Positions 9,360 through 57,368 of a stretch of DNA of 64,000 bases are shown one piece after another. A model generated the notes under the pieces. It was not told where the DNA came from, searched no databases, and saw only the letters and a program-made list of their open reading frames with translations. The stretch is from Candidatus Omnitrophota bacterium (GTDB lineage: Bacteria > Omnitrophota > Gorgyraeia > Duberdicusellales > 4484-171): the NCBI GenBank assembly GCA_043823745.1, contig JBDRAN010000006.1:40176-104175 (forward strand). Direction: 5' to 3'. The first letter of the stretch is position 1. Each line of letters opens with the position of its first letter. Both the position numbers and the translations under genes were made by a program.

Positions 9360-10076
9360 ATGGATTTTGCCATAGCATTAGTTGGATTGGCGGTGATAGG
9401 GGGGGTCGGCCTGATTGTTTACATGATACGGTCCCCGGCGAAGCCTCATGAACCTACGGGACAGAGGAGCATTGCCGAAGAAGAAAAAATCAGGATAGAG
9501 GGAGAACTCTTTTCCTGCAAAGATGAACGGGATCGCCTCAAAGCAGAACGTGAAAGCCTTGCAAGCGCACTACAGGAAATAAAAAAAGAAGATTCGGAGT
9601 TGCGCGATCAGATTTCACGCCTTAAAGAATGGTATGGAAAAAACCAGGAAGCACTTGAAAAAGTAAAAAAAGAAAATCTTGATCTGAAAGACAAGCTCGT
9701 CAGCCAGGAGAAAGGCATTACTGAGCACATCACGCATGTCGGAAACCTCAACAAAGAGCTCAAAGAAGCTAAAGGGAAAATTGACTATCTTGAGAAAGAA
9801 AATAAAGAGCTACTCCAGAAAATAAAAGCTCCGGGGCAGGGAGAGACCCTTCCCAAGCCTCAGGCGCCGGCGGCAGCCTCCCCAACGCATGAGCCACGCG
9901 CAAAAGAAGATAAAAAACCGGAGTCAGATGAGGCGCCACCGACGGCGCCCGAGCGCAAAGAAATAAATATCAAACCCCAGCCAACACCACCCGCTCCGAT
10001 ACCTCCCGCCGCACCGCACCCAAAAGAAGAAAAAAAGTCAGAAACACCCGACAAACCGAAAAATCCGGAAGAATAA
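9360..10076 (+). CDS. membrane-anchored coiled-coil protein with Pro-rich C-terminus (hypothetical)
   Basis: N-terminal TM helix (IALVGLAVIGGVGLIVYMI), heptad-rich E/K segment, PxP-rich tail; TTATAAT-like promoter upstream. Confidence 0.5.
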   Translation: MDFAIALVGLAVIGGVGLIVYMIRSPAKPHEPTGQRSIAEEEKIRIEGELFSCKDERDRLKAERESLASALQEIKKEDSELRDQISRLKEWYGKNQEALEKVKKENLDLKDKLVSQEKGITEHITHVGNLNKELKEAKGKIDYLEKENKELLQKIKAPGQGETLPKPQAPAAASPTHEPRAKEDKKPESDEAPPTAPERKEINIKPQPTPPAPIPPAAPHPKEEKKSETPDKPKNPEE

Positions 10077-21105: not shown

Positions 21106-22497
21106 ATGATTAAATTCGGTACTGACGGCTGGCGCGCGGTTATCGCGGAAGATTTTACGTTCGCAAACTTAAAAATTATTTCACAGGCAATCGCTGATTA
21201 TCTTAAAAAACAGCCCGGAAAAAATAAAAAAGTTGTTATCGGATATGATTGCCGCTTTCTTTCCGCTGAGTTCGCAAAAACCGTAGCCCTCGTTCTTGCG
21301 GCAAACAGAATCAAAGCAGTGCTTTCCGATAAACCGATCCCCACTCCCGCGGTCAGCCTTCACGCGCTGCATGGAAAATACGATCTTGGCGTCATGATCA
21401 CCGCCTCACACAACGGAGCCGAGTTTAACGGCCTTAAGATCAAAACAAAGGACGGCGGTGCGGCGGATAAAACGCTCACCGATGCGGTTGAACGCCTGCT
21501 CTATAAGACAAAACCGAAAATCGCGAATGAGGAAGAAGCCCGGAAACAAAAGCTTTTTTCCATACAAGATCTCTCCCAGTTCTATATTGATTTCTTTAAA
21601 ACCTTCGTCGACGTCGGGGCGATAAAGAAACTTAAACTTAACATCTTAATCGACACCATGTACGGCGCGGGAGATCATTTTATCGCTAACGTTTTAGGCG
21701 AATGCGGAATTAACCTGCATTACTTACACAACGAATTTAACCCTTCCTTCGGCGGATTGCACCCTGAACCGATCGAACCGTATTTAGAAGAAATGACGGC
21801 GGCAATGAAAAGCGGAACGTATGATTTAGGGATTGTGCTTGACGGGGACGCCGACCGCATCGCTACCTTTGACAGCAAAGGCACCTATATCAATGCACAA
21901 ATACTCCTTCCGCTCCTGTGCATCCACATGAATAAAAACAGAAATGAAAAGGGGGGTATCGGAAAGACCGTGGTTGGCAGCAACATCATTGATTCGGTCG
22001 CGCTGGCCCTCGGGGTTGCTTGCTACGAGACGCCGGTCGGATTCAAATATATCTCAAGCCTCTTTAAGCAGAATCTTATTTCTGTGGGAGGAGAGGAAGC
22101 CGGCGGCATTGGCTTTCACGGTTATATCCCTGAACGCGATGGCTCAATGAGCGCACTCCTGTTACTTGAAATGCTTGCCTGTGAACAAAAAAGCTTTGAT
22201 GCGCTCCTTGGTGAGCTCTTTCGGAACTACGGCCGCTGGTACTACAGCCGCGCCTCGATACCCGTTAAAAGCGTCAGAAAAAGCGTCAACGACATGAAGT
22301 TGCCGGCAAAACTCCTCGGTAAACCCGTTGAACGCGTCAACACGCTCGACGGAGTTAAGCTGATCACCAAGGATAACTGGCTGATGTTTCGTCAGTCCGG
22401 CACCGAACCGATTGTACGCGTCTACGCGGAAAGTCAGAGCAAAAAAGAAGCGGACGCGCTCCTGGCGCTGGGCAAGAAAATGATCTATGCTCTATGA
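21106..22497 (+). CDS. phosphoglucomutase/phosphomannomutase family protein
   Basis: Active-site loop TASHNGAEFNGLKI, four-domain alpha-D-phosphohexomutase layout; 463 aa. Confidence 0.8.
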   Translation: MIKFGTDGWRAVIAEDFTFANLKIISQAIADYLKKQPGKNKKVVIGYDCRFLSAEFAKTVALVLAANRIKAVLSDKPIPTPAVSLHALHGKYDLGVMITASHNGAEFNGLKIKTKDGGAADKTLTDAVERLLYKTKPKIANEEEARKQKLFSIQDLSQFYIDFFKTFVDVGAIKKLKLNILIDTMYGAGDHFIANVLGECGINLHYLHNEFNPSFGGLHPEPIEPYLEEMTAAMKSGTYDLGIVLDGDADRIATFDSKGTYINAQILLPLLCIHMNKNRNEKGGIGKTVVGSNIIDSVALALGVACYETPVGFKYISSLFKQNLISVGGEEAGGIGFHGYIPERDGSMSALLLLEMLACEQKSFDALLGELFRNYGRWYYSRASIPVKSVRKSVNDMKLPAKLLGKPVERVNTLDGVKLITKDNWLMFRQSGTEPIVRVYAESQSKKEADALLALGKKMIYAL

Positions 22498-23254: not shown

Positions 23255-24823
23255 ATGGCTGATGTATCTACGGAATTACAAAATGCGTATTTCAATTCTA
23301 TCAAGGAATTAAAAGAGGGCGAAATCATCAAGGGTAAGATTTTAAGCGTCACCCCCAACGAAGTGATTATCGATGTGGGGTATAAGGCTGAGGGAATACT
23401 CCTGCGTGAAGAATTTGAAGGGTTTGACATTGAAAATACCCAAGAAATCGACGTCTACGTTGAAAATGTAGAGGATGAGGAAGGAAAAATAATTCTTTCT
23501 TTTAAGAAAGCGCGCGAAACCAAAGGCTGGCAGAATCTTGCCAACAACTTCAATGAAGGTGATCTGGTTGAAGGAATACTCACGCGCAAGGTAAAGGGCG
23601 GCTACATGGTAAGTGTCTTCGGTGTAGAAGGGTTCCTGCCACAGAGCTTATCTTCATTCCGTAATGTTAGCGACGAAGAGATTATGGGCAAGAAATTCCA
23701 TTTCCAGATCGTAAAGATGAGCCGCGCCAAAGAAAATTTCATCCTCTCCCGTAAAGACGCGCTTAAAATCGAAAAAGAGCTTTCCCGCAAGAAAGTCTGG
23801 GAAGAAATAACTATCGGGAAACTCATGAAAGGCAAGGTAAAAAGCATCGCCAATTTCGGTGCGTTTATCGATCTGGGCGGCGTTGACGGCCTTCTGCATA
23901 TCGCCGATATGAGCTGGAGGAAAATTTCGCACCCCTCCGAAGTAGTGGCCGTAGGAGATGAGATTAACGTTCTCATTCTTAATTTTGACCGCGAAAAGAG
24001 TAAAATATCGCTGGGATTAAAACAGACCACACCGGACCCCTGGAAGGAAATAGGCCAAAAGTATCTTGCCGGTTCCATCGTCAAGGGACGTATCACCAAT
24101 ATCCAGAATTATGGCATTTTTGTTGAACTGGAAAAAGGCATTGAGGGGCTTGTGCATATCAGCGAGATTTCCTGGACCAAGAAGTTTATCAACCTGCATG
24201 AAACCTACGCCATCGGCGATGCTATTGAAACAAAAATTATCGGCGTTGACGCGGCAGAACGCAAAATTTCACTCAGCATCAAACACCTGGAGCGTGACCC
24301 GTGGGAGGATGTCGAAAATCTTGTTGTAATTGACACCTCAACCAAAGGTAAAATTGCAAGTTACGGCGAGGGCTGTGCCTACATGGAGCTTGAAAACGGC
24401 CTCGAGGGTATCGTCTATAATGAAGATATCTCGTGGACCAAACGCGTAACACGCGCACAAGAAATATTGAAGCGTGCGCATACCTATGACGTTAAGATCC
24501 TGGGTATTGACCGTACCAATCGAAAGGTGATCCTCGGCATGAAGCAACTTAAAGATGATCCCTGGCCGCAGCTTTTAGGCAAATACCAAGTCGGCAATGT
24601 TCTTGTGGGCGAAGTAGTCAAGGTCACCAACTTCGGCGTCTTCGTCAAGCTCGAAGAGGAACTTGAGGGGCTGGTCTTCTCCGGAGAAATAGATAAGGAA
24701 ACTGCTGAAAAATTGAAGCCTAAGGATACGCTTACCGTAAAAATCATCAAAATCGACGCGGGAGCGGCGAAAATCGGACTTTCGGCGAAAATAGATGAAA
24801 AGTCAGATACAGCGGCATCTTGA
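23255..24823 (+). CDS. rpsA: 30S ribosomal protein S1
   Basis: Multiple S1 domains (six, by eye); RBS GGAGG upstream; 522 aa. Confidence 0.85.
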   Translation: MADVSTELQNAYFNSIKELKEGEIIKGKILSVTPNEVIIDVGYKAEGILLREEFEGFDIENTQEIDVYVENVEDEEGKIILSFKKARETKGWQNLANNFNEGDLVEGILTRKVKGGYMVSVFGVEGFLPQSLSSFRNVSDEEIMGKKFHFQIVKMSRAKENFILSRKDALKIEKELSRKKVWEEITIGKLMKGKVKSIANFGAFIDLGGVDGLLHIADMSWRKISHPSEVVAVGDEINVLILNFDREKSKISLGLKQTTPDPWKEIGQKYLAGSIVKGRITNIQNYGIFVELEKGIEGLVHISEISWTKKFINLHETYAIGDAIETKIIGVDAAERKISLSIKHLERDPWEDVENLVVIDTSTKGKIASYGEGCAYMELENGLEGIVYNEDISWTKRVTRAQEILKRAHTYDVKILGIDRTNRKVILGMKQLKDDPWPQLLGKYQVGNVLVGEVVKVTNFGVFVKLEEELEGLVFSGEIDKETAEKLKPKDTLTVKIIKIDAGAAKIGLSAKIDEKSDTAAS

Positions 24824-25994: not shown

Positions 25995-26396
25995 ATGCAG
26001 GAACCATTTTACGAATCATTCGAAGAACGCAGAAAATTCAAACGAATTCCGGTTAATTTTATCGTTACCTATAGACCAAAAGAACCGGCGAAACTTAAAA
26101 TGTTGGTCGCGGAAGAAGAGATCAGGGCGGCAATGCTTGATTTAAGCGAAAGAGGCATGGCCCTTCTGACTGCATATGATATCCCGGTCGGAAGCCTTCT
26201 CTTAATCGAGTTTACCTTTATTGACACCAGCGTCCCCCAGGAAAATCTTCTGCATACCATGAAAATTTTAGGTGAAGTCCGTTATAATGCCCTCCAGGAT
26301 GCCCGCGCCCATCGTCTTGGGATCCAATTTACCGAAATCAGCGAAAACGATAAATACATCATCTCTATTTTCTGCCGCAAAGCAACACTGAAATAA
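25995..26396 (+). CDS. PilZ domain protein
   Basis: RxxxR (RRKFKRIP) and DxSxxG (DLSERGMAL) c-di-GMP-binding motifs; 133 aa. Confidence 0.6.
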   Translation: MQEPFYESFEERRKFKRIPVNFIVTYRPKEPAKLKMLVAEEEIRAAMLDLSERGMALLTAYDIPVGSLLLIEFTFIDTSVPQENLLHTMKILGEVRYNALQDARAHRLGIQFTEISENDKYIISIFCRKATLK

Positions 26397-26501: not shown

Positions 26502-26529
26502 TTGCAATTTGATTTGCCATTGTTATAAT
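26502..26529 (+). promoter_or_regulatory. sigma70-like promoter upstream of first GalT-like gene
   Basis: TTGCAA (26502-26507), 16-nt spacer, TATAAT (26524-26529). Confidence 0.4.
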
Positions 26530-26582: not shown

Positions 26583-27590
26583 ATGCCTCAATTACGTAAA
26601 GACCCTATCTTAGGACGTTGGGTTATCATTGCCACCGAGCGGGCCAAAAGACCAAAAGATTTTAGCCACGCTCGTTCTTCGCCGCCCGAGAAAGAATGCC
26701 CTTTTTGTCGCGGCAAGGAAGCAATGACCCCACCTGAAATTTATTCCGTTAAAGACGCTCGGGGCGAGTGGCGCGTGCGCGTGATCCCGAGTAAAAAACC
26801 CTTTGTCGGAAGCGAGGAAGAACTCTGGAAAAAAGGCAAGGGTCCCTACGACTTTATTAATGCCGTGGGAAACCACGAAGTTATCATCGAAAGCCCCGAT
26901 CACATCGACAATATTGCCGACCTTAATGAAAACCAGATTAAGGATGTTCTTTTCACCTACTGCAAACGCTTTCGCGAAATAGAAAAAGATAATCGCATCA
27001 AGTCAATTCTTGTTTTCAAAAACTACGGGTGGGACGCCGGAGGGGGTCGCGTCAAACATTCGCGTTCTCAGCTCATCTCGACGCCGGTTAATTTAAGACG
27101 CGTAAAAGAAGAGCTTGAGGGCAGCAAACACTACTATGACTCCCATGAACGATGTATCTTCTGCGATCTCATCCAGCAAGAGCTGGCAAGCGGAGAACGC
27201 GTGGTTCTCGACGAAGACGGGTTCATCGTACTCTCGCCCTTTGCGTCACGCTTTCCTTTTGAACTCTGGATACTGCCGAAAAAACATTCACCTGATTTCT
27301 ACAAAATCAGTGAAGATCAAGTCTGGGGCTTGTCACGCGTCCTGAAAAAGACACTTCTTAAAATAAAAATTTTGCTTAACGACCCGCAGTATAATTATGT
27401 TATCCATACCGCTCCGTTTCGCCGGGCGTATCCGGGATACTGGTCAACAATCGAAGAAGATTACCATTGGCATTTTGAGATTACGCCTTATCTAACAAAA
27501 GTAGCCGGTTTTGAATGGGGGAGTGGATTTTATATCTGCCCGACGCTACCGGAAGAAGCAGCGAAGTTTTTGAAAGAAACGAATGTGTAG
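26583..27590 (+). CDS. GalT-family (galactose-1-phosphate uridylyltransferase-like, HIT superfamily) paralog 1; nucleophilic His replaced by Arg (HSRSQ)
   Basis: DPILGRWVIIATERAKRP N-terminus, CPFC zinc knuckle, HEVIIESPDH; active-site pentad reads H-S-R-S-Q instead of H-x-H-x-Q. Confidence 0.7.
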   Translation: MPQLRKDPILGRWVIIATERAKRPKDFSHARSSPPEKECPFCRGKEAMTPPEIYSVKDARGEWRVRVIPSKKPFVGSEEELWKKGKGPYDFINAVGNHEVIIESPDHIDNIADLNENQIKDVLFTYCKRFREIEKDNRIKSILVFKNYGWDAGGGRVKHSRSQLISTPVNLRRVKEELEGSKHYYDSHERCIFCDLIQQELASGERVVLDEDGFIVLSPFASRFPFELWILPKKHSPDFYKISEDQVWGLSRVLKKTLLKIKILLNDPQYNYVIHTAPFRRAYPGYWSTIEEDYHWHFEITPYLTKVAGFEWGSGFYICPTLPEEAAKFLKETNV

Positions 27591-27757
27591 CCTGGCTTCA
27601 AGCTACAAGCCGCAAGCTCTTGGAATCATTACCCAAAGCCTGCAGCCTGTCCCGTTTCCTATAATATTTTATTAAGGTGCGGGACGCCCCGAACCTTAGT
27701 ATAATTATTAAGGGTAACGGGGCTGGAGCGTGCAGCAATAATACTTAATAATAAAAC

Positions 27758-28759
27758 ATGCCTGAACTAAGAAAAGATCCTATTGTTGCCCGCTGGGTCG
27801 TGGTGAATGTGGAAAAGCCGTATGAACCTAGTGATTTCCATGTCGTACCGTTTGTTTGGAAAGGCAAAGACGGTTGTTCGTTTTGCACCAACAATGAGCA
27901 CCTGACGCCACCGGAAGTTGAAGCGATTTCTGAAATCCACCGCGCGCCGAACACGCCGGGATGGAAAGTGCGTGTTGTCCCTAACAAGTTTCCCGCGCTT
28001 AAAATTGAGGGAGCACTCGATAAGCGGGCGCTGGGAATCTATGACATGTCCAACGGCATCGGCGCGCATGAAGTTATTATCGATAATCCTGATCATTTTA
28101 AAACAATCGCCGAACTAAGCACCGTTGACGTTGAATATATCTTAAAAGCGTACCGTTCCCGCTCTCTCGATTTACGACGCGACCGGCGCTTCAAATACTT
28201 GCTTATTTTCAAGAACGTCGGCGTTGAAGCCGGTGCCAGCCTTGAGCACGGTCACTCGCAGCTCATCGCGCTGCCGATGGTTCCGAAAAACGTCAAGGAA
28301 GAGGTCAAGGGCGCCCGACACTACTATGAATACCGTGAGCGTTGCATCTTTTGCGATATGCTTGCCTACGAAGAAGAAAGCGACAAGGGACGCGTGGTCG
28401 CGGAGAACGAGGGTTTTGTCTCGTTCTGCCCGCTCTCAAGCAGATTTTCATTTGAAACCTGGATTGTCCCCAAGCAACATTCAACCGACTATGCCGAAAT
28501 TGACGACAGCCGGGTAAAAGACCTTGCGACAATCTTAAAAGAAACGTTGCTACGCTTAAAGAAAGTCCTGGGGGAACACCCTTATAATTACATTCTGCAC
28601 ACTTCTCCCGTCAATACCGACGCGCATTTTTCGTTCCACTGGCATATTGAGATTATGCCTAAGCTTACACGCGTAGCCGGTTTTGAATGGGGCAGCGGAT
28701 TTTACCTTGTGTTTACTCCGCCCGAAGTAGCCGCGAAACATTTGCGAGAGGTCAAATGA
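27758..28759 (+). CDS. GalT-family nucleotidyltransferase paralog 2 (canonical HGHSQ active site)
   Basis: ~45% identical to paralog 1 by eye; CSFC knuckle, HEVIIDNPDH, canonical EHGHSQLIA. Confidence 0.75.
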   Translation: MPELRKDPIVARWVVVNVEKPYEPSDFHVVPFVWKGKDGCSFCTNNEHLTPPEVEAISEIHRAPNTPGWKVRVVPNKFPALKIEGALDKRALGIYDMSNGIGAHEVIIDNPDHFKTIAELSTVDVEYILKAYRSRSLDLRRDRRFKYLLIFKNVGVEAGASLEHGHSQLIALPMVPKNVKEEVKGARHYYEYRERCIFCDMLAYEEESDKGRVVAENEGFVSFCPLSSRFSFETWIVPKQHSTDYAEIDDSRVKDLATILKETLLRLKKVLGEHPYNYILHTSPVNTDAHFSFHWHIEIMPKLTRVAGFEWGSGFYLVFTPPEVAAKHLREVK

Positions 28760-29011: not shown

Positions 29012-30064
29012 ATGGCGGTCAAAGTCGGTATCAATGGGTTTGGAAGAATCGGAAGGATGGTAGGTCGAGCGATCCTTGAACGAAATTCAAAAAACATCGA
29101 ACTTGTAGCAGTTAATGATATTACGGATGCCAAAGCTCTTGCGCATCTTCTCAAATACGACTCGGTCCATGGCCGCTTTCCCGGGGGCGACGTCAAAGTC
29201 GGTACAGGCTCAATTATGGTTAACGGTAAAGAGATAAAAGTACTCGCTAAAAAAGATCCGGGGGAATTGCCGTGGAAAGAGCTTGGCGTTGATATCGTGG
29301 TCGAATCAACAGGGCTTTTTACCATAAAGAATGACGGCGTCAACAAGAAAGGAAAAGAAGTAAAAGGTGCCATCAACCATATTGCCAAGGGCGGCGCAAA
29401 AAAAGTTATTATCTCGGCTCCGGCAGAAGGAGAAGATATCACGATTGTCATGGGTGTTAACGACAATAAATATGACCCCAAGAATCACCATGTGATTTCA
29501 AACGCTTCCTGCACCACCAACTGCCTTGGACCTGTCGCGAAAATTATCAATGATACCTGGGGTATTGAGAAAGGCTTAATGACCACCATACACGCCTACA
29601 CGAACGACCAGCGCGTACAGGACCTTCCGCACTCGGATATGCGCAGAGCCCGTGCGGCAGCAGTGTCGATGATTCCCACCTCAACCGGTGCAGCGAGAGC
29701 TATCGGCCTGGTTATTCCTGAGCTTAAAGGAAAACTGGACGGCTTTGCCATGAGAGTCCCGGTTGTTAATGTCTCGGTAGTTGATCTTTCCTGCACGCTC
29801 AAGAAAGACGTAACGGTAGAAGATATCAACGGAGCACTTAAAACAGCTTCCCAGGGTGCCTTGAAAGACATTCTTGATTATACCGACGAAGATGTTGTTT
29901 CGGTTGACTTTAACCATTACCCGGCTTCATCAACGGTCGATTCCAAAATGACGAAGGTTATCGGCGGTAACTTCGTAAAAGTCCTTGCCTGGTATGATAA
30001 CGAGTGGGGTTATTCCTGCAGAGTAGTAGATTTGATTGAATTAATGGTAAAGAAAGGATTATAA
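29012..30064 (+). CDS. gap: glyceraldehyde-3-phosphate dehydrogenase
   Basis: NGFGRIGR Rossmann motif, catalytic SCTTNCL; 350 aa. Confidence 0.9.
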
Positions 30065-30066
30065 TA

Positions 30067-30131
30067 CTAGAAGCGGAAGTACGCGGAACATCAGCGTTTA
30101 TCCGCGTTTTGATCCGCGGCAATCCGCTTCT
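30067..30131. repeat. REP/MITE-like intergenic element family 1, copy A (gap-pgk spacer)
   Basis: tagaagcggaagtacgcggaacatcagcgtttatccgcgttttgatccgcggcaatccgcttcta; terminal 10-bp inverted repeat tagaagcgga/tccgcttcta; internal GCGGAA and ATCCGC iterations. Confidence 0.75.
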
Positions 30132-30140
30132 AATAAAAAG

Positions 30141-31328
30141 GTGGTCATGTCAAAACTAACCCTTAACGATGTGGATGTAACGGGAAAAAAAGTGATTATG
30201 CGCGTTGACTTTAACGTGCCGCTTGATAAGCAAGGCGTAATTACGGATGATAACCGCATACGGGAGGCTCTGCCGACCATCAAATATATTCTTGAGCGCG
30301 GAGCGCGCACATTAATTCTTATGAGTCATCTGGGCAGGCCTGACGGAACGGTTGTTGAAGGCCTGCGTATGAGCGCGGTAGCAAAGAAATTATCAAGCTT
30401 GCTCGGACAAGAGGTAGAAAAGCTTGACGACTGCGTGGGGCCGGAGGTGCAAAAGGCAATCGCGGCGACAAAGGCAAAAATCGTTCTTCTTGAGAATCTT
30501 CGTTTTCACGCAGAGGAAGAAGCCGGTGACGAAGCGTTTGCCAAAGAACTCGCTTCGCTTGCCGATATCTATGTCAATGACGCATTCGGCACCGCTCATC
30601 GCGCGCATGCTTCAACCACGCTTATCGCACAGTTCATCCCCTCCTGCCTCGGTTTTCTCATGGAGAAAGAAGTAACCTCGCTCGCCGCGGCATTAAAGCC
30701 TGCCAAGCCATATGTCGTGATCTTAGGAGGGGCGAAGGTCTCCGATAAAATCGGCGTCATCAGCAATTTAATGAAAAATGCCGATACGATACTCGTCGGC
30801 GGCGCCATGGCCTATACCTTTTTAAAAAGCAGGGGCGAGGATGTGGGTAATTCGCGCGTTGAGGCTGATAAGCTTGCCCTGGCCAAAGACATCTTAACCG
30901 AAGCGAAACAGAAAAATGTGCACATTATATTACCCGTCGATCACGTGGCAGTTGAAGCGATCGATAACCCCGCGACAAAGAAAATCGTGGACACAATCCC
31001 CGCTGGTTTTCTGGGCGTCGATATCGGCCCCAAAACAATCGCGCTGTTTAAGAAAGAACTTTCTCTCGCTAAAACGGTGCTCTGGAACGGGCCCGTGGGC
31101 ATTTTTGAGAAAGAACCATACGCTCAGGGGACACGTGAGCTCGCGCTGTACCTGGCGACACTTACAAGCACAACCGTTATTGTCGGAGGCGGGGATTCTG
31201 CCGCAGCTGCCAAGAAATTTGGAGTAGCCGGAAGTCTTTCGCACGTTTCAACCGGCGGAGGAGCTTCGCTTGAACTCTTAGAAGGGAAAGAATTGTCGGG
31301 GATCGCGATAATACCGGATAAAAAATAG
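30141..31328 (+). CDS. pgk: phosphoglycerate kinase
   Basis: Typical PGK N- and C-domain motifs; 395 aa; its TAG stop lies inside family-1 copy B. Confidence 0.9.
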   Translation: MVMSKLTLNDVDVTGKKVIMRVDFNVPLDKQGVITDDNRIREALPTIKYILERGARTLILMSHLGRPDGTVVEGLRMSAVAKKLSSLLGQEVEKLDDCVGPEVQKAIAATKAKIVLLENLRFHAEEEAGDEAFAKELASLADIYVNDAFGTAHRAHASTTLIAQFIPSCLGFLMEKEVTSLAAALKPAKPYVVILGGAKVSDKIGVISNLMKNADTILVGGAMAYTFLKSRGEDVGNSRVEADKLALAKDILTEAKQKNVHIILPVDHVAVEAIDNPATKKIVDTIPAGFLGVDIGPKTIALFKKELSLAKTVLWNGPVGIFEKEPYAQGTRELALYLATLTSTTVIVGGGDSAAAAKKFGVAGSLSHVSTGGGASLELLEGKELSGIAIIPDKK

Positions 31329-31400
31329 AAGCGGAACAACGCGGAAGCACGCGGAACATCAGCGTCTATCCGCGTTTTGATCCGCAGCAATCCGCTTCTA
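31326..31400. repeat. REP/MITE-like element family 1, copy B (pgk-tpiA spacer; has an extra ACGCGGAA unit)
   Basis: tagaagcggaacaacgcggaagcacgcggaacatcagcgtctatccgcgttttgatccgcagcaatccgcttcta; the pgk stop codon TAG is the first 3 nt of the element. Confidence 0.75.
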
Positions 31401-31414
31401 AAAAAAGGAATTAT

Positions 31415-32170
31415 ATGAGAAAACCAATAATTGCAGGTAACTGGAAAATGTATAAAACGATTAATGAAGGTGTGGCGCTCGCCAATGGATTAAAACGCGA
31501 GCTTCTCGACTTCAATGAAGCTGAAATCGTATTGTGCCCGCCCTTTACGGCTCTCGCGTCAATATATGAGATACTCATGGAAACCGAGATTAAACTGGGC
31601 GCGCAAAATCTTTTCTGGGAAAAAGAAGGAGCATATACCGGAGAAGTGTCTTCGCTGATGCTCAAAGACGCAGGCTGTGAATTTGTCATTCTCGGCCATT
31701 CCGAACGGCGAAAATATTTCGGGGAAACAGACGATGCAATCAACAAAAAGATACGCGTCGCCATGGCCGTCGGGCTTACGTCTATCTGTTGCGTCGGAGA
31801 AACACTCCAGGAACGGGAATCCGGAAAAACCATCGATGTTATTACGACGCAACTGACCGGTTGTTTTACGGACTTGCAGATCGAAGATATTATGGGTATT
31901 GTGATTGCGTATGAACCGGTCTGGGCTATCGGGACCGGCAAAAACGCAACACCGACGCAGGCACAGGAAGTGCACACGTTCATCCGCACCTGGCTTGCCG
32001 AACGATTCTCGGATGGTTTTGCTCAAAACACGCGTATCCTCTACGGAGGAAGCGTAAAACCCGCAAACACCAAAGAAATCATGAATGAACCTGACGTTGA
32101 CGGCGCGCTGGTCGGCGGAGCATCACTGGAAATTGCTTCGTTTGTGAATATTGTCAAAAATGCCGTCTAA
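31415..32170 (+). CDS. tpiA: triosephosphate isomerase
   Basis: AGNWKMY…, catalytic-loop motifs; 251 aa. Confidence 0.9.
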   Translation: MRKPIIAGNWKMYKTINEGVALANGLKRELLDFNEAEIVLCPPFTALASIYEILMETEIKLGAQNLFWEKEGAYTGEVSSLMLKDAGCEFVILGHSERRKYFGETDDAINKKIRVAMAVGLTSICCVGETLQERESGKTIDVITTQLTGCFTDLQIEDIMGIVIAYEPVWAIGTGKNATPTQAQEVHTFIRTWLAERFSDGFAQNTRILYGGSVKPANTKEIMNEPDVDGALVGGASLEIASFVNIVKNAV

Positions 32171-38178: not shown

Positions 38179-39549
38179 ATGAAAGTTGCGCTATGTTCTT
38201 CCGAAGTTTTCCCGTTCGCAAAAACCGGAGGGCTTGCTGACGTTACCGGAGCGCTGCCGGCGGCACTTGCAAAAGAAAAAGTTCAGGTAAAAGTATTTAT
38301 GCCCCTCTATAAAAACATAAAGCCTCAAAAGATGTTTGCCGACTACGGCCTCACCAAACAGGGCACCGTTGACTTTTATTTCGTCAAGAATGATAATTAT
38401 TTTTCACGCGATGCTCTTTACGGAACCCCTCAAGGGGATTATCCGGATAACCTTGAACGCTTTTCTTTTTTCAGCAAACAGGTACTTGAGATCTTAAAGA
38501 AAATAAAATTCTCTCCTGATGTGCTCCACGCCAATGACTGGCAAGCGGCACTGATCAATATTTACGCCAAAACAATCTATAAAAAAGACCCCTTTTTCAA
38601 GAACAGCCGCTGCGCGCTGACTATTCATAATCTCGCATACCAAGGTCTCTTTGAAAAAGAAAAATATCCACTTCTGGGCCTTTCATGGGATTATTTCAAT
38701 ATGCATCAGCTTGAATTTTACGGAAAGATAAATCTTTTAAAAGGCGGTATCGCTTTCTCCGATGTCGTCAACACCGTCAGCCCCACCTACGCAAAGCAAA
38801 TCCAGACACCCGACTATGGGTGCGGCCTGGAAGGCGTACTGCGAGAAAAACGAGAGCATCTATGCGGAATTTTAAACGCCATTGACTATACGATCTGGAA
38901 CCCTAAGACCGATACGCACATTTATAAGAAGTTTTCCGTGCTTAATCTTGAGGCAAAGCTTGAAAACAAAAAAGCCTTTCAGAAAGCCCTTGGCCTTACC
39001 GTAAACAAAGACACGCTGATGCTGGGCATGGTTACGCGGCTTGCGGAGCAAAAAGGTGTGGACATCCTCTCTGAAAGCATGGAGTACATCCTGAAAAAAC
39101 ACCAGGTGGTCATCCTTGGCTTTGGCGATGAAAAATACCATAAGACACTGAAAAAACTTGCGGTAAAATATAAAAAATCATTTTCCCTTAATTTAACGTT
39201 TGACGAGACACTCGCGCATCGAATTTATGCAGCGTGCGACTGTTTCCTCATGCCATCGCGCTTTGAACCCTGCGGCCTGTCGCAGATGATGAGCTACAAA
39301 TACGCCACGATTCCAATTGTGCATCATACCGGTGGCCTGGTAGATACGGTCGTTGACACGAGCTTGAAAGGCGGCGGATTCGTGTTCTATAAGTACTCAA
39401 GTAACGATTTAATCACGTGCATCGAGCGCGCGTACGCGCTGTTTAAAAATCGAAAAGAATGGTCCGCGTTACTTAAAAAAGTAAGCCGCTTCAACTTTTC
39501 CTGGGAAGCAACGGCGAAGAAGTATATTGAGATGTACGCGAAACTCTAA
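38179..39549 (+). CDS. glgA: glycogen synthase (ADP-glucose type)
   Basis: N-terminal KTGGLADV motif, GT-B fold; 456 aa. Confidence 0.85.
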   Translation: MKVALCSSEVFPFAKTGGLADVTGALPAALAKEKVQVKVFMPLYKNIKPQKMFADYGLTKQGTVDFYFVKNDNYFSRDALYGTPQGDYPDNLERFSFFSKQVLEILKKIKFSPDVLHANDWQAALINIYAKTIYKKDPFFKNSRCALTIHNLAYQGLFEKEKYPLLGLSWDYFNMHQLEFYGKINLLKGGIAFSDVVNTVSPTYAKQIQTPDYGCGLEGVLREKREHLCGILNAIDYTIWNPKTDTHIYKKFSVLNLEAKLENKKAFQKALGLTVNKDTLMLGMVTRLAEQKGVDILSESMEYILKKHQVVILGFGDEKYHKTLKKLAVKYKKSFSLNLTFDETLAHRIYAACDCFLMPSRFEPCGLSQMMSYKYATIPIVHHTGGLVDTVVDTSLKGGGFVFYKYSSNDLITCIERAYALFKNRKEWSALLKKVSRFNFSWEATAKKYIEMYAKL

Positions 39550-54610: not shown

Positions 54611-55263
54611 AACTTTTTATTGATACCGCAAATCTTGAAGAAATAAAAACAGCTCGCGCGTTGGGGGTGCTTGACGGTGTTACCACCAACCCCACGCTCT
54701 TGGCAAGAGAAAAAGCAGAGCCCCGACAACAGCTTAAGGCTATCTGCGCTGCCGTCCGGGGGCCGGTCAGCGCCGAAGTAATGGGCCTGACGGCTGTTGA
54801 GATGGTCCGCGAAGCACGAGAACTCGTTGCTATTGCCTCAAATATCGTTATTAAAATACCTTCAACCGTCGAGGGGCTTACCGCGACAGCTGCTTTGCGG
54901 GACCTGAACATACAAACAAACCTCACGTTGTGTTTCTCCGCCTCTCAGGCACTGCTCGTCGCAAAAGCAGGCGCCACCTTTGTTTCACCGTTTGTAGGAA
55001 GGCTCGACGACATATCCCAGGAAGGGATGAATCTCATCCGAGACATACGACTGATATATAAAAATTATACCCTCCCGACGCAAATCATCGTTGCCTCGAT
55101 CAGGCACCCGCTTCATTTTGTGGAGGCAGCGCGTATCGGCGCCGACATTGCCACGGTCCCTTTTGCTGTTATTGAAAAACTGATGCATCATCCATTAACC
55201 GACATCGGCGTTCAACGCTTTCTCGAAGACTGGAAAACTTTAAACGACATCCTTAAAACATGA
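54607..55263 (+). CDS. transaldolase (short Tal / fructose-6-phosphate-aldolase-type)
   Basis: [13 protein letters not shown]…, Schiff-base lysine region (…VIKIPST…); ~218 aa. Confidence 0.8.
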
Positions 55264-57368
55264 AACAGTACTTTTTCCTGCTCGCCCTTCTCGTGGTGCC
55301 CCTTGCAACCAGTGCCGCCAGTGAAGTTTTGCCGGTTGACATCAACGCCGATGAAATCAACTATCTACAAGAAGAAGGCACTGCCGTAGCCCACGGCAAT
55401 GTCAAAATGTCCTACAAAGATACCACGCTCTACTGCGACGAGGCCCATTACGACGCAAAAAAACAATTAGTAAATATTACAGGCAAGGTAAAAATCGTCA
55501 AAGACGGAATAACCGCCTATGGCGAGAATGTCGTATACGATTTCAATACTCAAAACGCGACGCTCGCCGGCATGACCATGACTAACCCGCCAATGTATGT
55601 CTCGGCACATGAAGCACAGAAGGTCGGTAAGGAAAAATATGTCTTAAATAACGGTTATGTTACCACCTGCGACAAGAAAGAGCCGCACTACCGCATCGTC
55701 GCCCAACACATCTCCTTTTATCCCGGCGTTAAGGTAGTGGCGAAAAATGTTATCATTAAAGTCGGTACCGTCCCCATATTGTACATACCGTACTTCTCAC
55801 TACCCTTTAATGACAGATCGTTCCCGCTACAAATCACACCCGGGCAAGATGATAAATGGGGGACCTATCTACTGAGCCGCTGGCGCTACCATATTGGCAA
55901 CCAAAACAGGGGAAAAATTATTTTTGACTGGTATGACAAACGCGGTTTTGGCAAAGGAATCCTGCATAAAGCCGAAGGCACAAAGTTTGGCGACGCGCTC
56001 CTTAATGTATATTCGATCGAAGATGATATGTACAAACTCCAGAACCGGGACGATCTCTTTAAAAAATACCCTGAGCGTAAGGATTTAGGCTCAAAGGCCC
56101 TTGAGGATGATCGCTACAAAATACAATTCTATCAAAGCTGGCAGCCTAAACCAGAGCTTTCGATAAAAACGGAACTTAATAAATTTTCAGACCAGTACTT
56201 TATGAAGGATTTCTTCTACCGCGAATATGAAATAGAACCGCGCCCCCTTTCCTACAACCTCATCGACTACGCGTTTCCTAACTCTTCTCTCTCGCTCCTG
56301 ACACAAAAGCGGGTGAACGATTTCTTTACGGAATTAGAATACGTGCCCCAAGCGGAATATAATTTTTACCGGCAACAGCTCGGCGCTTCAAATTTTTATT
56401 TCGAGTCGACGTCAACCGCCGGGAACCTCGCCTACCACGTTGCCGACTCCGACAGCCACTACGACTCAGCCCGCGTTCACTCCCATAACGTTCTCAGCTA
56501 TACTCAAAATATTAAGTGGCTTTATATTAACCCGTATGCCGGCTCCTACACTACTTTTTACTCCAAGGGCTCTGATGAAAATTCTGATTTCTGGAGAGTC
56601 GCGCCTGAGACCGGTGTTAATTTTAGTACCAAATTATACAAAAATATCGACCACCCGTTTTTATTGGGTCGGGAGCGTGTTTCCACGATGCGCCATATCA
56701 TAACGCCGATTCTCTCTTACAGCTACATCTTTCCACCCACGGTTTCGCGTACCCGTATTTATCAATTTGACACAACCGACAATCTGGCGCGCGATGAAAA
56801 AATACGCTTCGCACTCGACAACAAGCTTAAAGCCCGCAGTGACCGACGTACCTGGGACTTTATATACTTCAGCCCCGCGGTCGAATACAGCGTAAACAAA
56901 GAAGGGATGAAAGGGAGCTACTTCGACAAAATTACCGCTGATTTTGAAATATACCCCAAAGAATGGCTCTCGTTTAACTCCAAAACCCAATACGATTGCG
57001 TTGACCGGGCAATCAAAGAGGTTACCGCTGATTTTACGATTCACGACCCCCGCAACAGGGAAAACACCATCTCGCTTGGCCACCGCTATATGCGTCATGA
57101 GAGCTCACAAGGAACATTCGGATTAACCTATCAGCTCACTCCCAAGGTACAGTTTAGAAATTATTTACGCTACGAATACAAAGAAGGGAAATTCCAGGAG
57201 CAGCAATATAGCGTGCGCACGGACCTTCATTGTTGGTGGCTTGATGTTGGCACCAATATCGATAATAATAAAAATTACACCCTATGGTTTGCTTTTATAC
57301 TCAAAGACTTCCCCGATATACACCTGGGCTTTGACCAAACCTATAGCGGCGCAAAAGAATCGTATTAA
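55260..57368 (+). CDS. lptD: LPS-assembly outer-membrane protein LptD (OstA family)
   Basis: Signal peptide, OstA N-domain (DINADEINY…GNVKM…), large C-terminal beta-barrel-type region ending in aromatic residues. Confidence 0.7.

Follow-up and report, generated by a model that had tools for sequence, protein, structure and literature searches.

Two adjacent genes in a 64,000-nucleotide stretch of a Candidatus Omnitrophota genome (contig JBDRAN010000006.1; this whole stretch is called the window hereafter) encode paralogous proteins of the galactose-1-phosphate uridylyltransferase (GalT) class of the HIT superfamily. The upstream gene, called 'up' (paralog 1, p1), and the downstream gene, called 'down' (paralog 2, p2), probably encode the two subunits of an obligate pseudoenzyme–enzyme heterodimer of the GalT type, in which one site is live and the other one is dead. 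GalT-class HIT enzymes are textbook symmetric homodimers. If the proposal is true, the pair represents a naturally asymmetric GalT—a duplication locked in by complementary cis/trans losses, with each gene being useless alone. The physical heterodimer with its single live site as well as the substrate and the physiological role of the pair are what we infer from the comparison of sequences described below.

Residues retained and lost in the two paralogs

Both proteins carry the motifs by which a sequence-only reading of the window had assigned them to the GalT class (DPIxxRWV, AKRP, CxxC, and HEVII..PDH), and the two adjacent open reading frames (ORFs) on the forward strand stand as then located (Table 1). 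They share 43% identity over their full length (BLASTP, E 1e-96), and the Pfam domains GalP_UDP_transf and GalP_UDP_tr_C are matched above their gathering scores in both: PF01087 (cutoff 22.1 bits) reaches 34.6 bits in p1 and 51.7 bits in p2, and PF02744 (cutoff 29.2 bits) reaches 46.9 and 38.6 bits, respectively. The NCBIfam models are more selective. TIGR00209 (galT_1, cutoff 102.1) scores 122.1 for p2—above its cutoff—and 89.2 for p1—below it—and the PRK11720 equivalog NF008724 (cutoff 448) is missed by far by both p2 (126.9) and p1 (104.2). Among solved structures, the Arabidopsis ADP-glucose phosphorylase At5g18200 (1Z84) is the top phmmer match for p1 (E 3.5e-69) as well as for p2 (E 1.3e-64) with residues 2–334 covered, followed at far weaker similarity by Pyrobaculum GalT, E. 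coli GalT, and human GALT (hGALT). Hence, both proteins fall into the ADP-glucose-phosphorylase-like branch of class I GalT rather than among the Leloir GalT enzymes, as had been suspected.

Within this common fold, the zinc site is kept by both paralogs (p1 C39/C42/H107/H159 and p2 C40/C43/H113/H164, corresponding to E. coli C52/C55/H115/H164 in a MAFFT alignment), and its ligands are 96–100% conserved in the 'up' and 'down' clades alike. 'Up' retains in addition N147, Q163, the arm formed by R20 and R23, and the C-terminal AGFEWG loop, but has changed at the nucleophile (now R161), at the Asn and the Ala of the nucleotide loop (now S70 and F74), and by a one-residue insertion in the Ser loop (G155/R156). 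'Down', on the other side, retains the Zn knuckle, the loop N76-K77-F78-P79-A80, and S161, and its arm is gone with K20 and E23 in place of the two Arg residues. The pentad H-x-H-x-Q of the family is present in p2 as H164-G-H166-S-Q168 and broken in p1, which reads H159-S-R161-S-Q163; conversely, the R-x-x-R arm (E. coli R28/R31) is present in p1 and absent from p2. Judged by these residues, p2 is a catalytic member of class I GalT, and p1 belongs to this class through ancestry and fold only.

Three alignments agree on the Arg at the nucleophile position of p1 and on the canonical HGHSQ of p2, both of which had already been read from the sequence. BLASTP places VKHSRSQLI of p1 opposite LEHGHSQLI of p2, phmmer places 'vkhsrsq' of p1 opposite 'mshshsq' of At5g18200, and a MAFFT alignment of p1, p2, At5g18200, and the E. 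coli and human enzymes equates E. coli H164/H166/Q168 with At5g18200 H184/H186/Q188, p2 H164/H166/Q168, and p1 H159/R161/Q163. The deposited mutant 2H39 differs from 1Z84 solely in the His at the nucleophile position. 'Up' is predicted to be unable to form the covalent nucleotidyl intermediate.

This Arg is widespread, far more so than chance would allow. Of the 120 protein-database homologues closest to p1 (60–87% identical and almost all labelled Omnitrophota; three of the 120 matched no motif), 114 show it within an H-x-R-x-Q motif. It is also present in 29 of 31 'up' genes on genome contigs and in all 19 on metagenome contigs, so that more than 150 independent sequences, drawn from many assemblies, share it. 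The 29 genes spell it with six synonymous codons—CGT 13 times, CGC nine times, AGG, CGA, and CGG twice each, and AGA once—which argues that the Arg is held by selection rather than by recent common descent. In four 'up' lineages (L018, L021, L082 with P0044, and L083 with P0042) the position is a His, encoded by CAT and, hence, one transition away from CGT. The signature of S70, Ile, Leu, or Gln at 71, and a bulky residue at 74 is still degenerate in all four, and the partner still lacks the Arg arm. As the rest of the site is degenerate in these lineages, the site is expected to be dead whatever residue stands there, and the Arg might be seen as a marker of the dead site and not as its sole cause. 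The earlier prediction that paralog 1 is unable to form the covalent intermediate stands, hereby, insofar as the accepting His is missing; the change of His to Arg is, however, just one of several coordinated losses. Further exceptions are a Lys in one 'up' protein (P0095) and the loss of the Gln as well in another (L004, HSRSR). The role of Arg161 is less clear, and our default reading is a structural one, with the side chain possibly filling and neutralizing the pocket.

A column-by-column comparison of 31 'up', 29 'down', and 48 single-copy sequences places these differences in context. In the numbering of p2, the columns changed in 'up' only are N76 (Ser in 90%), K77 (Ile), A80 (Phe, Ile, Val, or Leu), L162 (Ile or Val), and H166 (Arg), accompanied by the one-residue insertion (at 155) before the position of Ser161. 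Hereby, the exchange of Lys for Ile holds in most 'up' relatives, and p1 of the window itself reads K71. The arm shows the opposite pattern: R20 and R23, within the motif E-R-A-K-R-P, are found in 97% of the 'up' sequences and in 98% and 92% of the single copies, and no 'down' sequence has both of them together. Every 'up' gene of the first set that possesses its N-terminus carries both R20 and R23. A Pro at position 2, with no known role, is likewise conserved in 'up' and in the single copies and changed in 'down'.

The structural knowledge on this family suggests why these losses belong together. Class I GalTs, like At5g18200, form homodimers in which the active sites are placed between the two subunits and receive sugar-binding residues from the neighbouring chain (bioRxiv 10.64898/2026.09.13.751320). 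In the MAFFT alignment, R20/R23 align with E. coli R28/R31 and with human R48/R51, and N76–A80 with human N97–A101. The arm of hGALT extends into the active site of the partner subunit. Molecular dynamics simulations of hGALT describe stable intersubunit contacts R48A–F99B, H47A–P100B, S45A–A101B, and D98A–R51B, and R48/R51 bind glucose-1-phosphate (PMC8513031). These contact segments are exactly those that have degenerated in 'down'—the arm—and in 'up'—the nucleotide loop. Mapped onto such a dimer, all losses, i.e., the cis elements of 'up' and the trans elements of 'down', would fall into the same one of the two sites, and the other site, built from the cis elements of 'down' and the trans elements of 'up', would be complete. 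A dimer of two 'up' chains lacks the nucleophile and a dimer of two 'down' chains lacks the Arg arm in both sites; hence, only the mixed dimer would offer a complete site. An arm that acts on the site of the partner would also explain the strict retention of R20/R23 in 'up' despite the dead site of its own. As 'down' without R20/R23 is itself incomplete, the two proteins would be mutually dependent.

Pairing, shared history, and natural fusions

The sequence-only reading had asked whether relatives carry the same paired arrangement, and they do in all informative loci. We scanned one genome per species with the 'up' alignment, classifying every GalT-like ORF in the 80 returned loci, and reciprocally scanned an independent collection of metagenome contigs with the 'down' alignment. 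On the genome contigs, each of the 28 up-type genes with downstream sequence has a His-bearing copy directly next to it on the same strand, and the two up-type genes without a downstream copy both lie at a contig edge. On the metagenome contigs, an Arg-type gene stands directly before each of the 19 down-type genes with upstream sequence; four down-type genes without an upstream partner start less than 250 nucleotides from the contig end. The dead paralog is, thus, always found alongside the active one. In the genome loci, all 48 single-copy genes (Zixibacteria, Acidobacteriota, Nitrospirota, and others) show the full canonical set of residues, and 57 of 57 canonical genes on metagenome contigs are alone within ±3 kb. 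In 20 of the 28 pairs, the distance from stop to start is between −13 and +9 nucleotides. Such short distances indicate translational coupling, which is the usual signature of coupled subunits.

The two genes also share their history. In a neighbour-joining tree, the 'up' sequences form one clade and the 'down' sequences another, the branching of one clade mirroring that of the other, and the pairwise distances within 'up' and 'down' correlate with r = 0.83, which points to one old duplication followed by co-inheritance. Over 26 pairs, the mean pairwise identity is 0.61 for 'up' and 0.57 for 'down', so that 'up' is no less constrained. Some loci deviate in detail. In L012 (7002–7974), L099 (2995–3999), and L103 (1711–2784), the N-terminal part of 'down' is split or unaligned, which a frameshift or an assembly error may explain; the pentad and the remainder of 'down' are intact in the same three loci. 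Several close homologues of the pair (P0015, L007, L016, L019, L020, L022–L024, and L055) appear in public records under the names Aenigmatarchaeota, Planctomycetales/Planctomycetia, or Anaerolineales. These loci share the Omnitrophota pair and most of them also the synteny with gap, pgk, and tpi, and their labels are probably errors of binning or taxonomy.

Further members were sought by a profile search of 1.84 billion representative proteins clustered at 50% identity, of which the 150 best were classified by alignment. At this clustering, few close members are represented (best identity to p1 0.49), and the search leaves the size of the Arg clade unresolved. It did return three natural fusions—P0121 with 599 residues, P0271, and P0272—that consist of two GalT-like halves within 596–599 residues and are 52–56% identical. 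P0121, the only fusion traced to a contig, lies in an Omnitrophota metagenome-assembled genome (MAG; L081, 6001–7800) as a single gene in place of the up–down pair, within the order NadD-PGM-PlsC-S1-TyrRS-[fusion]-gap-pgk-tpi that is also the order in the window. As P0271 and P0272 stem from other samples, the fusion architecture appears real and maintained.

In all three fusions, the N-terminal half shows an invariant MSELRK..RWV.VAVERAKRPNDF arm (ERAKRP) and a strictly conserved AGFEWGTG loop, and its CxxC, NK, HEVII, and pentad are all gone, Zn site 1 with them—a decay well beyond that of 'up' in the two-gene systems. The C-terminal half starts at CPFC with the arm deleted, retains VPNKFPAL, HEVIIE, and AGASLEH.HTQLI, and shows relaxation in its own trans loop (SGFEWSTGSY, TGFERETEIY, and TGFELATGSY). 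Read by these motifs, the fusions are the same division of labour as the gene pair, taken further, and the retention pattern of their halves is an independent argument for an arm acting in trans.

The same search returned GalT-like proteins without a nucleophilic His outside the pair. Among the 150 best representatives, 18 domains in 18 proteins bear Tyr, Ile, Val, Ser, Cys, Leu, Thr, Gln, or Arg at this position; 16 of these proteins are single-domain with 280–400 residues. The idea that every nucleophile-less GalT-like protein adjoins a live paralog was rejected, since P0133 (L085, with baeRF/DUF123), P0149 (L086, beside acetate kinase), and P0134 (L087, with Pan kinase/Usp) stand alone; the status of the Arg arm is mixed in these three. 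These lineages are probably separate, non-catalytic GalT-like proteins, and their unrelated contexts limit the heterodimer model to the Omnitrophota pair clade. Two larger proteins were also seen: in P0251 (969 residues), a live HPHSQ domain precedes an HPTWQ domain, which is the reverse of the order in the Omnitrophota fusions, and P0128 (871 residues) bears two His-bearing GalT-like domains with long low-complexity extensions.

Proposed mechanism and competing explanations

Each active site of a class I GalT/HIT dimer is composed of cis elements of one chain—the Zn knuckle, the N-x-F-P-A loop, the Ser loop, and H-x-H-x-Q—and of trans elements of the other chain, namely the R-x-x-R arm and the C-terminal sugar loop. 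We propose that a tandem duplication in an Omnitrophota ancestor provided two copies of such a subunit. The upstream copy would have lost its cis residues (R161, S70, mostly Ile for Lys, a bulky residue at the Ala position, and the insertion in the Ser loop) and kept its trans elements, and the downstream copy would have kept all cis residues and lost the trans Arg arm, leaving K20 and E23 in the window. With neither homodimer having a complete site, both genes would always be kept together. In the live site, His166 of 'down' might attack the α-phosphate of a nucleoside diphosphate hexose—ADP-glucose or a UDP-hexose being candidates—to give nucleotidyl-His and hexose-1-phosphate, and the nucleotidyl group might then be passed to phosphate or to another hexose-1-phosphate, with R20 and R23 of 'up' holding the sugar phosphate or phosphate. 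The product would enter PGM and glycolysis, consistent with the gap-pgk-tpi neighbourhood, and one lineage would later have joined both genes into a single polypeptide. As for the closest solved relative, McCoy et al. reportedly described in 2006 an activity of At5g18200 on ADP-glucose and inorganic phosphate with ping-pong kinetics via AMP-His186. The sequences of the pair themselves showed no determinants of substrate specificity.

Other explanations have to be measured against the same observations. It is hardly credible that 'up' is a pseudogene in decay or an artefact of sequencing: nothing more than the missing catalytic His speaks for it, against an intact reading frame, about 100 invariant columns among 19 orthologues, a conservation at least that of the active partner, and the recurrence of the Arg in so many sequences. 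The two proteins might instead form independent homodimers, 'down' being an ordinary transferase with a substrate that needs no arm and 'up' a separate binding protein or an Arg-using single-displacement enzyme. The stand-alone nucleophile-less homologues in other contexts and the strong overall conservation of 'up' would suit this picture, which we nevertheless hold to be quite improbable. It leaves unexplained why 'up', whose own sites would be dead, retains R20/R23 at about 97%, why co-occurrence is perfect in both directions and accompanied by coupling, and why the fusions combine a trans-only 'up' half with an arm-less 'down' half; the loss of the Asn and the filled A74 position argue in addition against nucleotide binding by 'up'. 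A phosphorylase-type variant with a different mechanism, as the sequence-only reading had also considered for paralog 1, finds little support.

More subtle is a heterodimer whose dead site serves as a non-catalytic allosteric pocket, where Arg161, in many cases together with Arg156, would hold phosphate or a sugar phosphate and control the live site, which would tie the entry of hexose-1-phosphate to the glycolytic state. Arg161 has indeed persisted while its codon changed synonymously, the Ser-loop position often carries an Arg as well, with R156 in about half of the 'up' genes, and N147, S162, Q163, and the Zn site of 'up' as well as the trans loop of 'down' are 93–100% conserved in the two-gene systems. 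Also, the pentad Arg of the hGALT variant Q188R forms persistent salt bridges to the nucleotide phosphate (PMC8513031). On the contrary, a His stands at this position in four lineages with nothing else restored, a Lys occurs in P0095, the Gln is lost too in L004, the whole site is left to decay in the fusion lineage, R156 varies in deep branches, and no ligand can be inferred. On balance, such an allosteric pocket is rather unlikely. We are similarly doubtful that an Arg-lined pocket of R161, R156, N147, S162, Q163, and the sugar loop of the partner senses phosphate or sugar phosphate and gates the live site, or that Arg161 supports a non-covalent single-displacement transfer; to our knowledge, non-covalent single-displacement nucleotidyl transfer has no precedent in the HIT superfamily. 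If the allosteric reading were true, the pair would by itself sense the metabolic state at the point of entry into the gap-pgk-tpi block. Hence, from the earlier proposal of a pseudoenzyme or regulatory partner, the partner in a heterodimer is what co-occurrence, coupling, mirrored trees, and fusions favour, but the R20/R23 arm makes it probable that this partner is not merely regulatory.

Several observations weigh against an obligate heterodimer with one live and one dead site, or limit it. R23 is lost (Glu or Lys) in 'up' of one sublineage, L082 and L083. The assignment of the Arg arm to a role in trans is carried over from human and E. coli GalT to the At5g18200-like branch, where this role might differ. 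The conservation of Q163, N147, and the Zn site in 'up' and of the AGFEWG loop in 'down', which would all lie on the side of the dead site, indicates that this site is not simply decaying and may keep a role. In the window itself, the two genes are separated by 167 nucleotides and are not coupled. The stand-alone nucleophile-less genes imply that the loss of the His alone does not call for a partner. Finally, an AlphaFold2 model of the fusion P0121 is of moderate quality (predicted local distance difference test 74.4, predicted template modelling score 0.68) and bears no interface detail; its alignment placed all single-domain sequences on the C-terminal half, confidence is low for residues 16–70 of the N-terminal half and for the linker, and the model was not used as evidence.

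The proposed heterodimer can be compared to known systems. At5g18200 (1Z84 and 2H39) shares the fold, the Zn ligands, the position of the pentad, and a dimer with intersubunit sites, and shares all aligned catalytic residues with 'down' except for the Arg arm. Its chains are identical, however, both of its sites are live, and R41/R44 are present, whereas the Omnitrophota pair comprises two diverged chains, one without the nucleophile and one without the arm. E. coli and human GalT (1HXP and 5IN3) belong to the same superfamily branch with the same cis/trans architecture—the E. coli residues mapping as R28/R31, N77, S161, and H164/H166/Q168—but their similarity is far weaker (E about 1e-17 to 1e-22), and they are homodimers in contrast to the apparent heterodimer described here. 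Pyrobaculum aerophilum GalT (6K5Z) ranks second among the solved relatives (E about 1e-36). This short class I GalT-like protein from a prokaryote reads HPHSQ at the pentad; as a difference, it bears its own His nucleophile, and its entry holds two chains under one molecule name, galactose-1-phosphate uridylyltransferase.

Functionally, the closest analogy is found in the 'prozyme' systems of trypanosomatids, above all deoxyhypusine synthase (DHS). Both trypanosomatid DHS genes are essential, and DHS active sites lie at subunit interfaces. In the DHSc/DHSp system, a dead and an impaired paralog must combine for activity (PMC3663545). Duplication followed by mutual dependence is common to both systems; the trypanosomatid one is eukaryotic with an unrelated fold and chemistry, whereas the evidence for the Omnitrophota pair is comparative and includes operon coupling and natural fusions. 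A literature search of incomplete coverage did not turn up any report on a GalT/HIT heterodimer in which one subunit is dead, nor any treatment of GalT in Omnitrophota. If the proposal is true, the pair would be an unusually clean sequence-level case for the origin of pseudoenzyme subunits and obligate heteromers in bacteria—in the sense of constructive neutral evolution and the 'prozyme' logic—and would provide independent evolutionary evidence for the R-x-x-R arm of the GalT family acting in trans. This might be surprising to specialists of HIT enzymes and pseudoenzymes without being field-changing. In public MAGs, 'up' is labelled 'galactose-1-phosphate uridylyltransferase' or 'DUF4931'; when the metabolism of Omnitrophota is reconstructed, the pair should be treated as a single enzyme, with its specificity for the nucleoside diphosphate sugar left unspecified.

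Genomic context and intergenic regions

Table 1 Positions in the window of the two genes, their diagnostic residues, and neighbouring elements
Feature	Position	Strand	Basis or remark
'Up' gene (paralog 1, p1), 335 aa	26583..27590	+	ORF list; predicted GalT/HIT-fold pseudo-subunit
'Down' gene (paralog 2, p2), 333 aa	27758..28759	+	ORF list; predicted catalytic subunit
Arg161 codon CGT of 'up', position of the nucleophilic His (E. coli H166, At5g18200 H186)	27063..27065	+	alignments
R20-A-K-R23 codons of 'up' (E. coli GalT R28/R31, hGALT R48/R51), putative phosphate-binding arm across the dimer interface	26640..26651	+	alignment and homology
S70-K71-K72-P73-F74 of 'up', degenerate N-K-F-P-A nucleotide loop (hGALT N97-A101; contact of the partner's Arg arm)	26790..26804	+	alignment
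H164-G-H166-S-Q168 pentad of 'down'	28247..28261	+	alignment
H166 codon CAC of 'down', predicted nucleotidyl-accepting His	28253-28255	+	alignment
K20-P-Y-E23 of 'down', site of the lost R-x-x-R arm	27815..27826	+	alignment
Promoter-like TTGCAA-16 nt-TATAAT (with TG), 5' of 'up'	26502..26529	+	consensus match only
Long imperfect hairpin, most of the 167-nt spacer between 'up' and 'down'	27640..27735	+	folding
gap (29012-30064), pgk (30141-31328), tpi (31415-32170)	29012..32170	+	conserved downstream neighbours across Omnitrophota

In essentially every paired locus, gap comes immediately after the pair, and pgk and tpi usually come next; the upstream side of the pair varies. This linkage points to a possible pathway by which hexose-1-phosphate is fed into glycolysis. 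The window contains neither galK nor galE, and galM does not neighbour the pair either, in line with the earlier remark that other gal genes are missing nearby. The placement next to glycogen genes did not hold: glgA (38179–39549) is 9.4 kb downstream and a PGM-family gene (21106–22497) 4 kb upstream. A glycogen linkage was rejected, with no glgC, glgB, or glgP in the window and gap-pgk-tpi being the conserved linkage.

A promoter-like upstream region of its own had been ascribed to each gene. A promoter scan called a match 5' of 'up' and none in the spacer before 'down', so that the claim stands for the first gene only. The spacer (27591–27757) contains a hairpin, whose core sequence is unique in the window: the region 27588–27760 folds with −59.6 kcal/mol (z = −4.55), and none of 200 shuffled sequences is equally stable. 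Lacking a T run, the hairpin is not an intrinsic terminator. The spacers of the closest relatives measure 72 and 39 nucleotides and contain no hairpin, and most pairs have no spacer at all; the hairpin is, thus, probably a lineage-specific insertion and not part of the enzyme system. A search against Rfam gave no credible riboswitch or known RNA in the intergenic regions, and the regions 5' of both genes share only short repeats at chance level rather than a common repeat or promoter element.

Elsewhere in the window, two ORFs at 55260–57368 (702 residues; threshold 1e-8) and 9360–10076 (238 residues; threshold 1e-6) have no Pfam match. Between tyrS and the pair lies a PilZ-domain gene of 133 residues (25995–26396), which is present in the closest relative (L088) and absent in L081, L082, and L083, and is hence not a conserved part of the cluster. 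Further upstream, the frames of rpsA (S1) and tyrS overlap by 29 nucleotides (24795–24823), and they do likewise in L082, L083, and L088.

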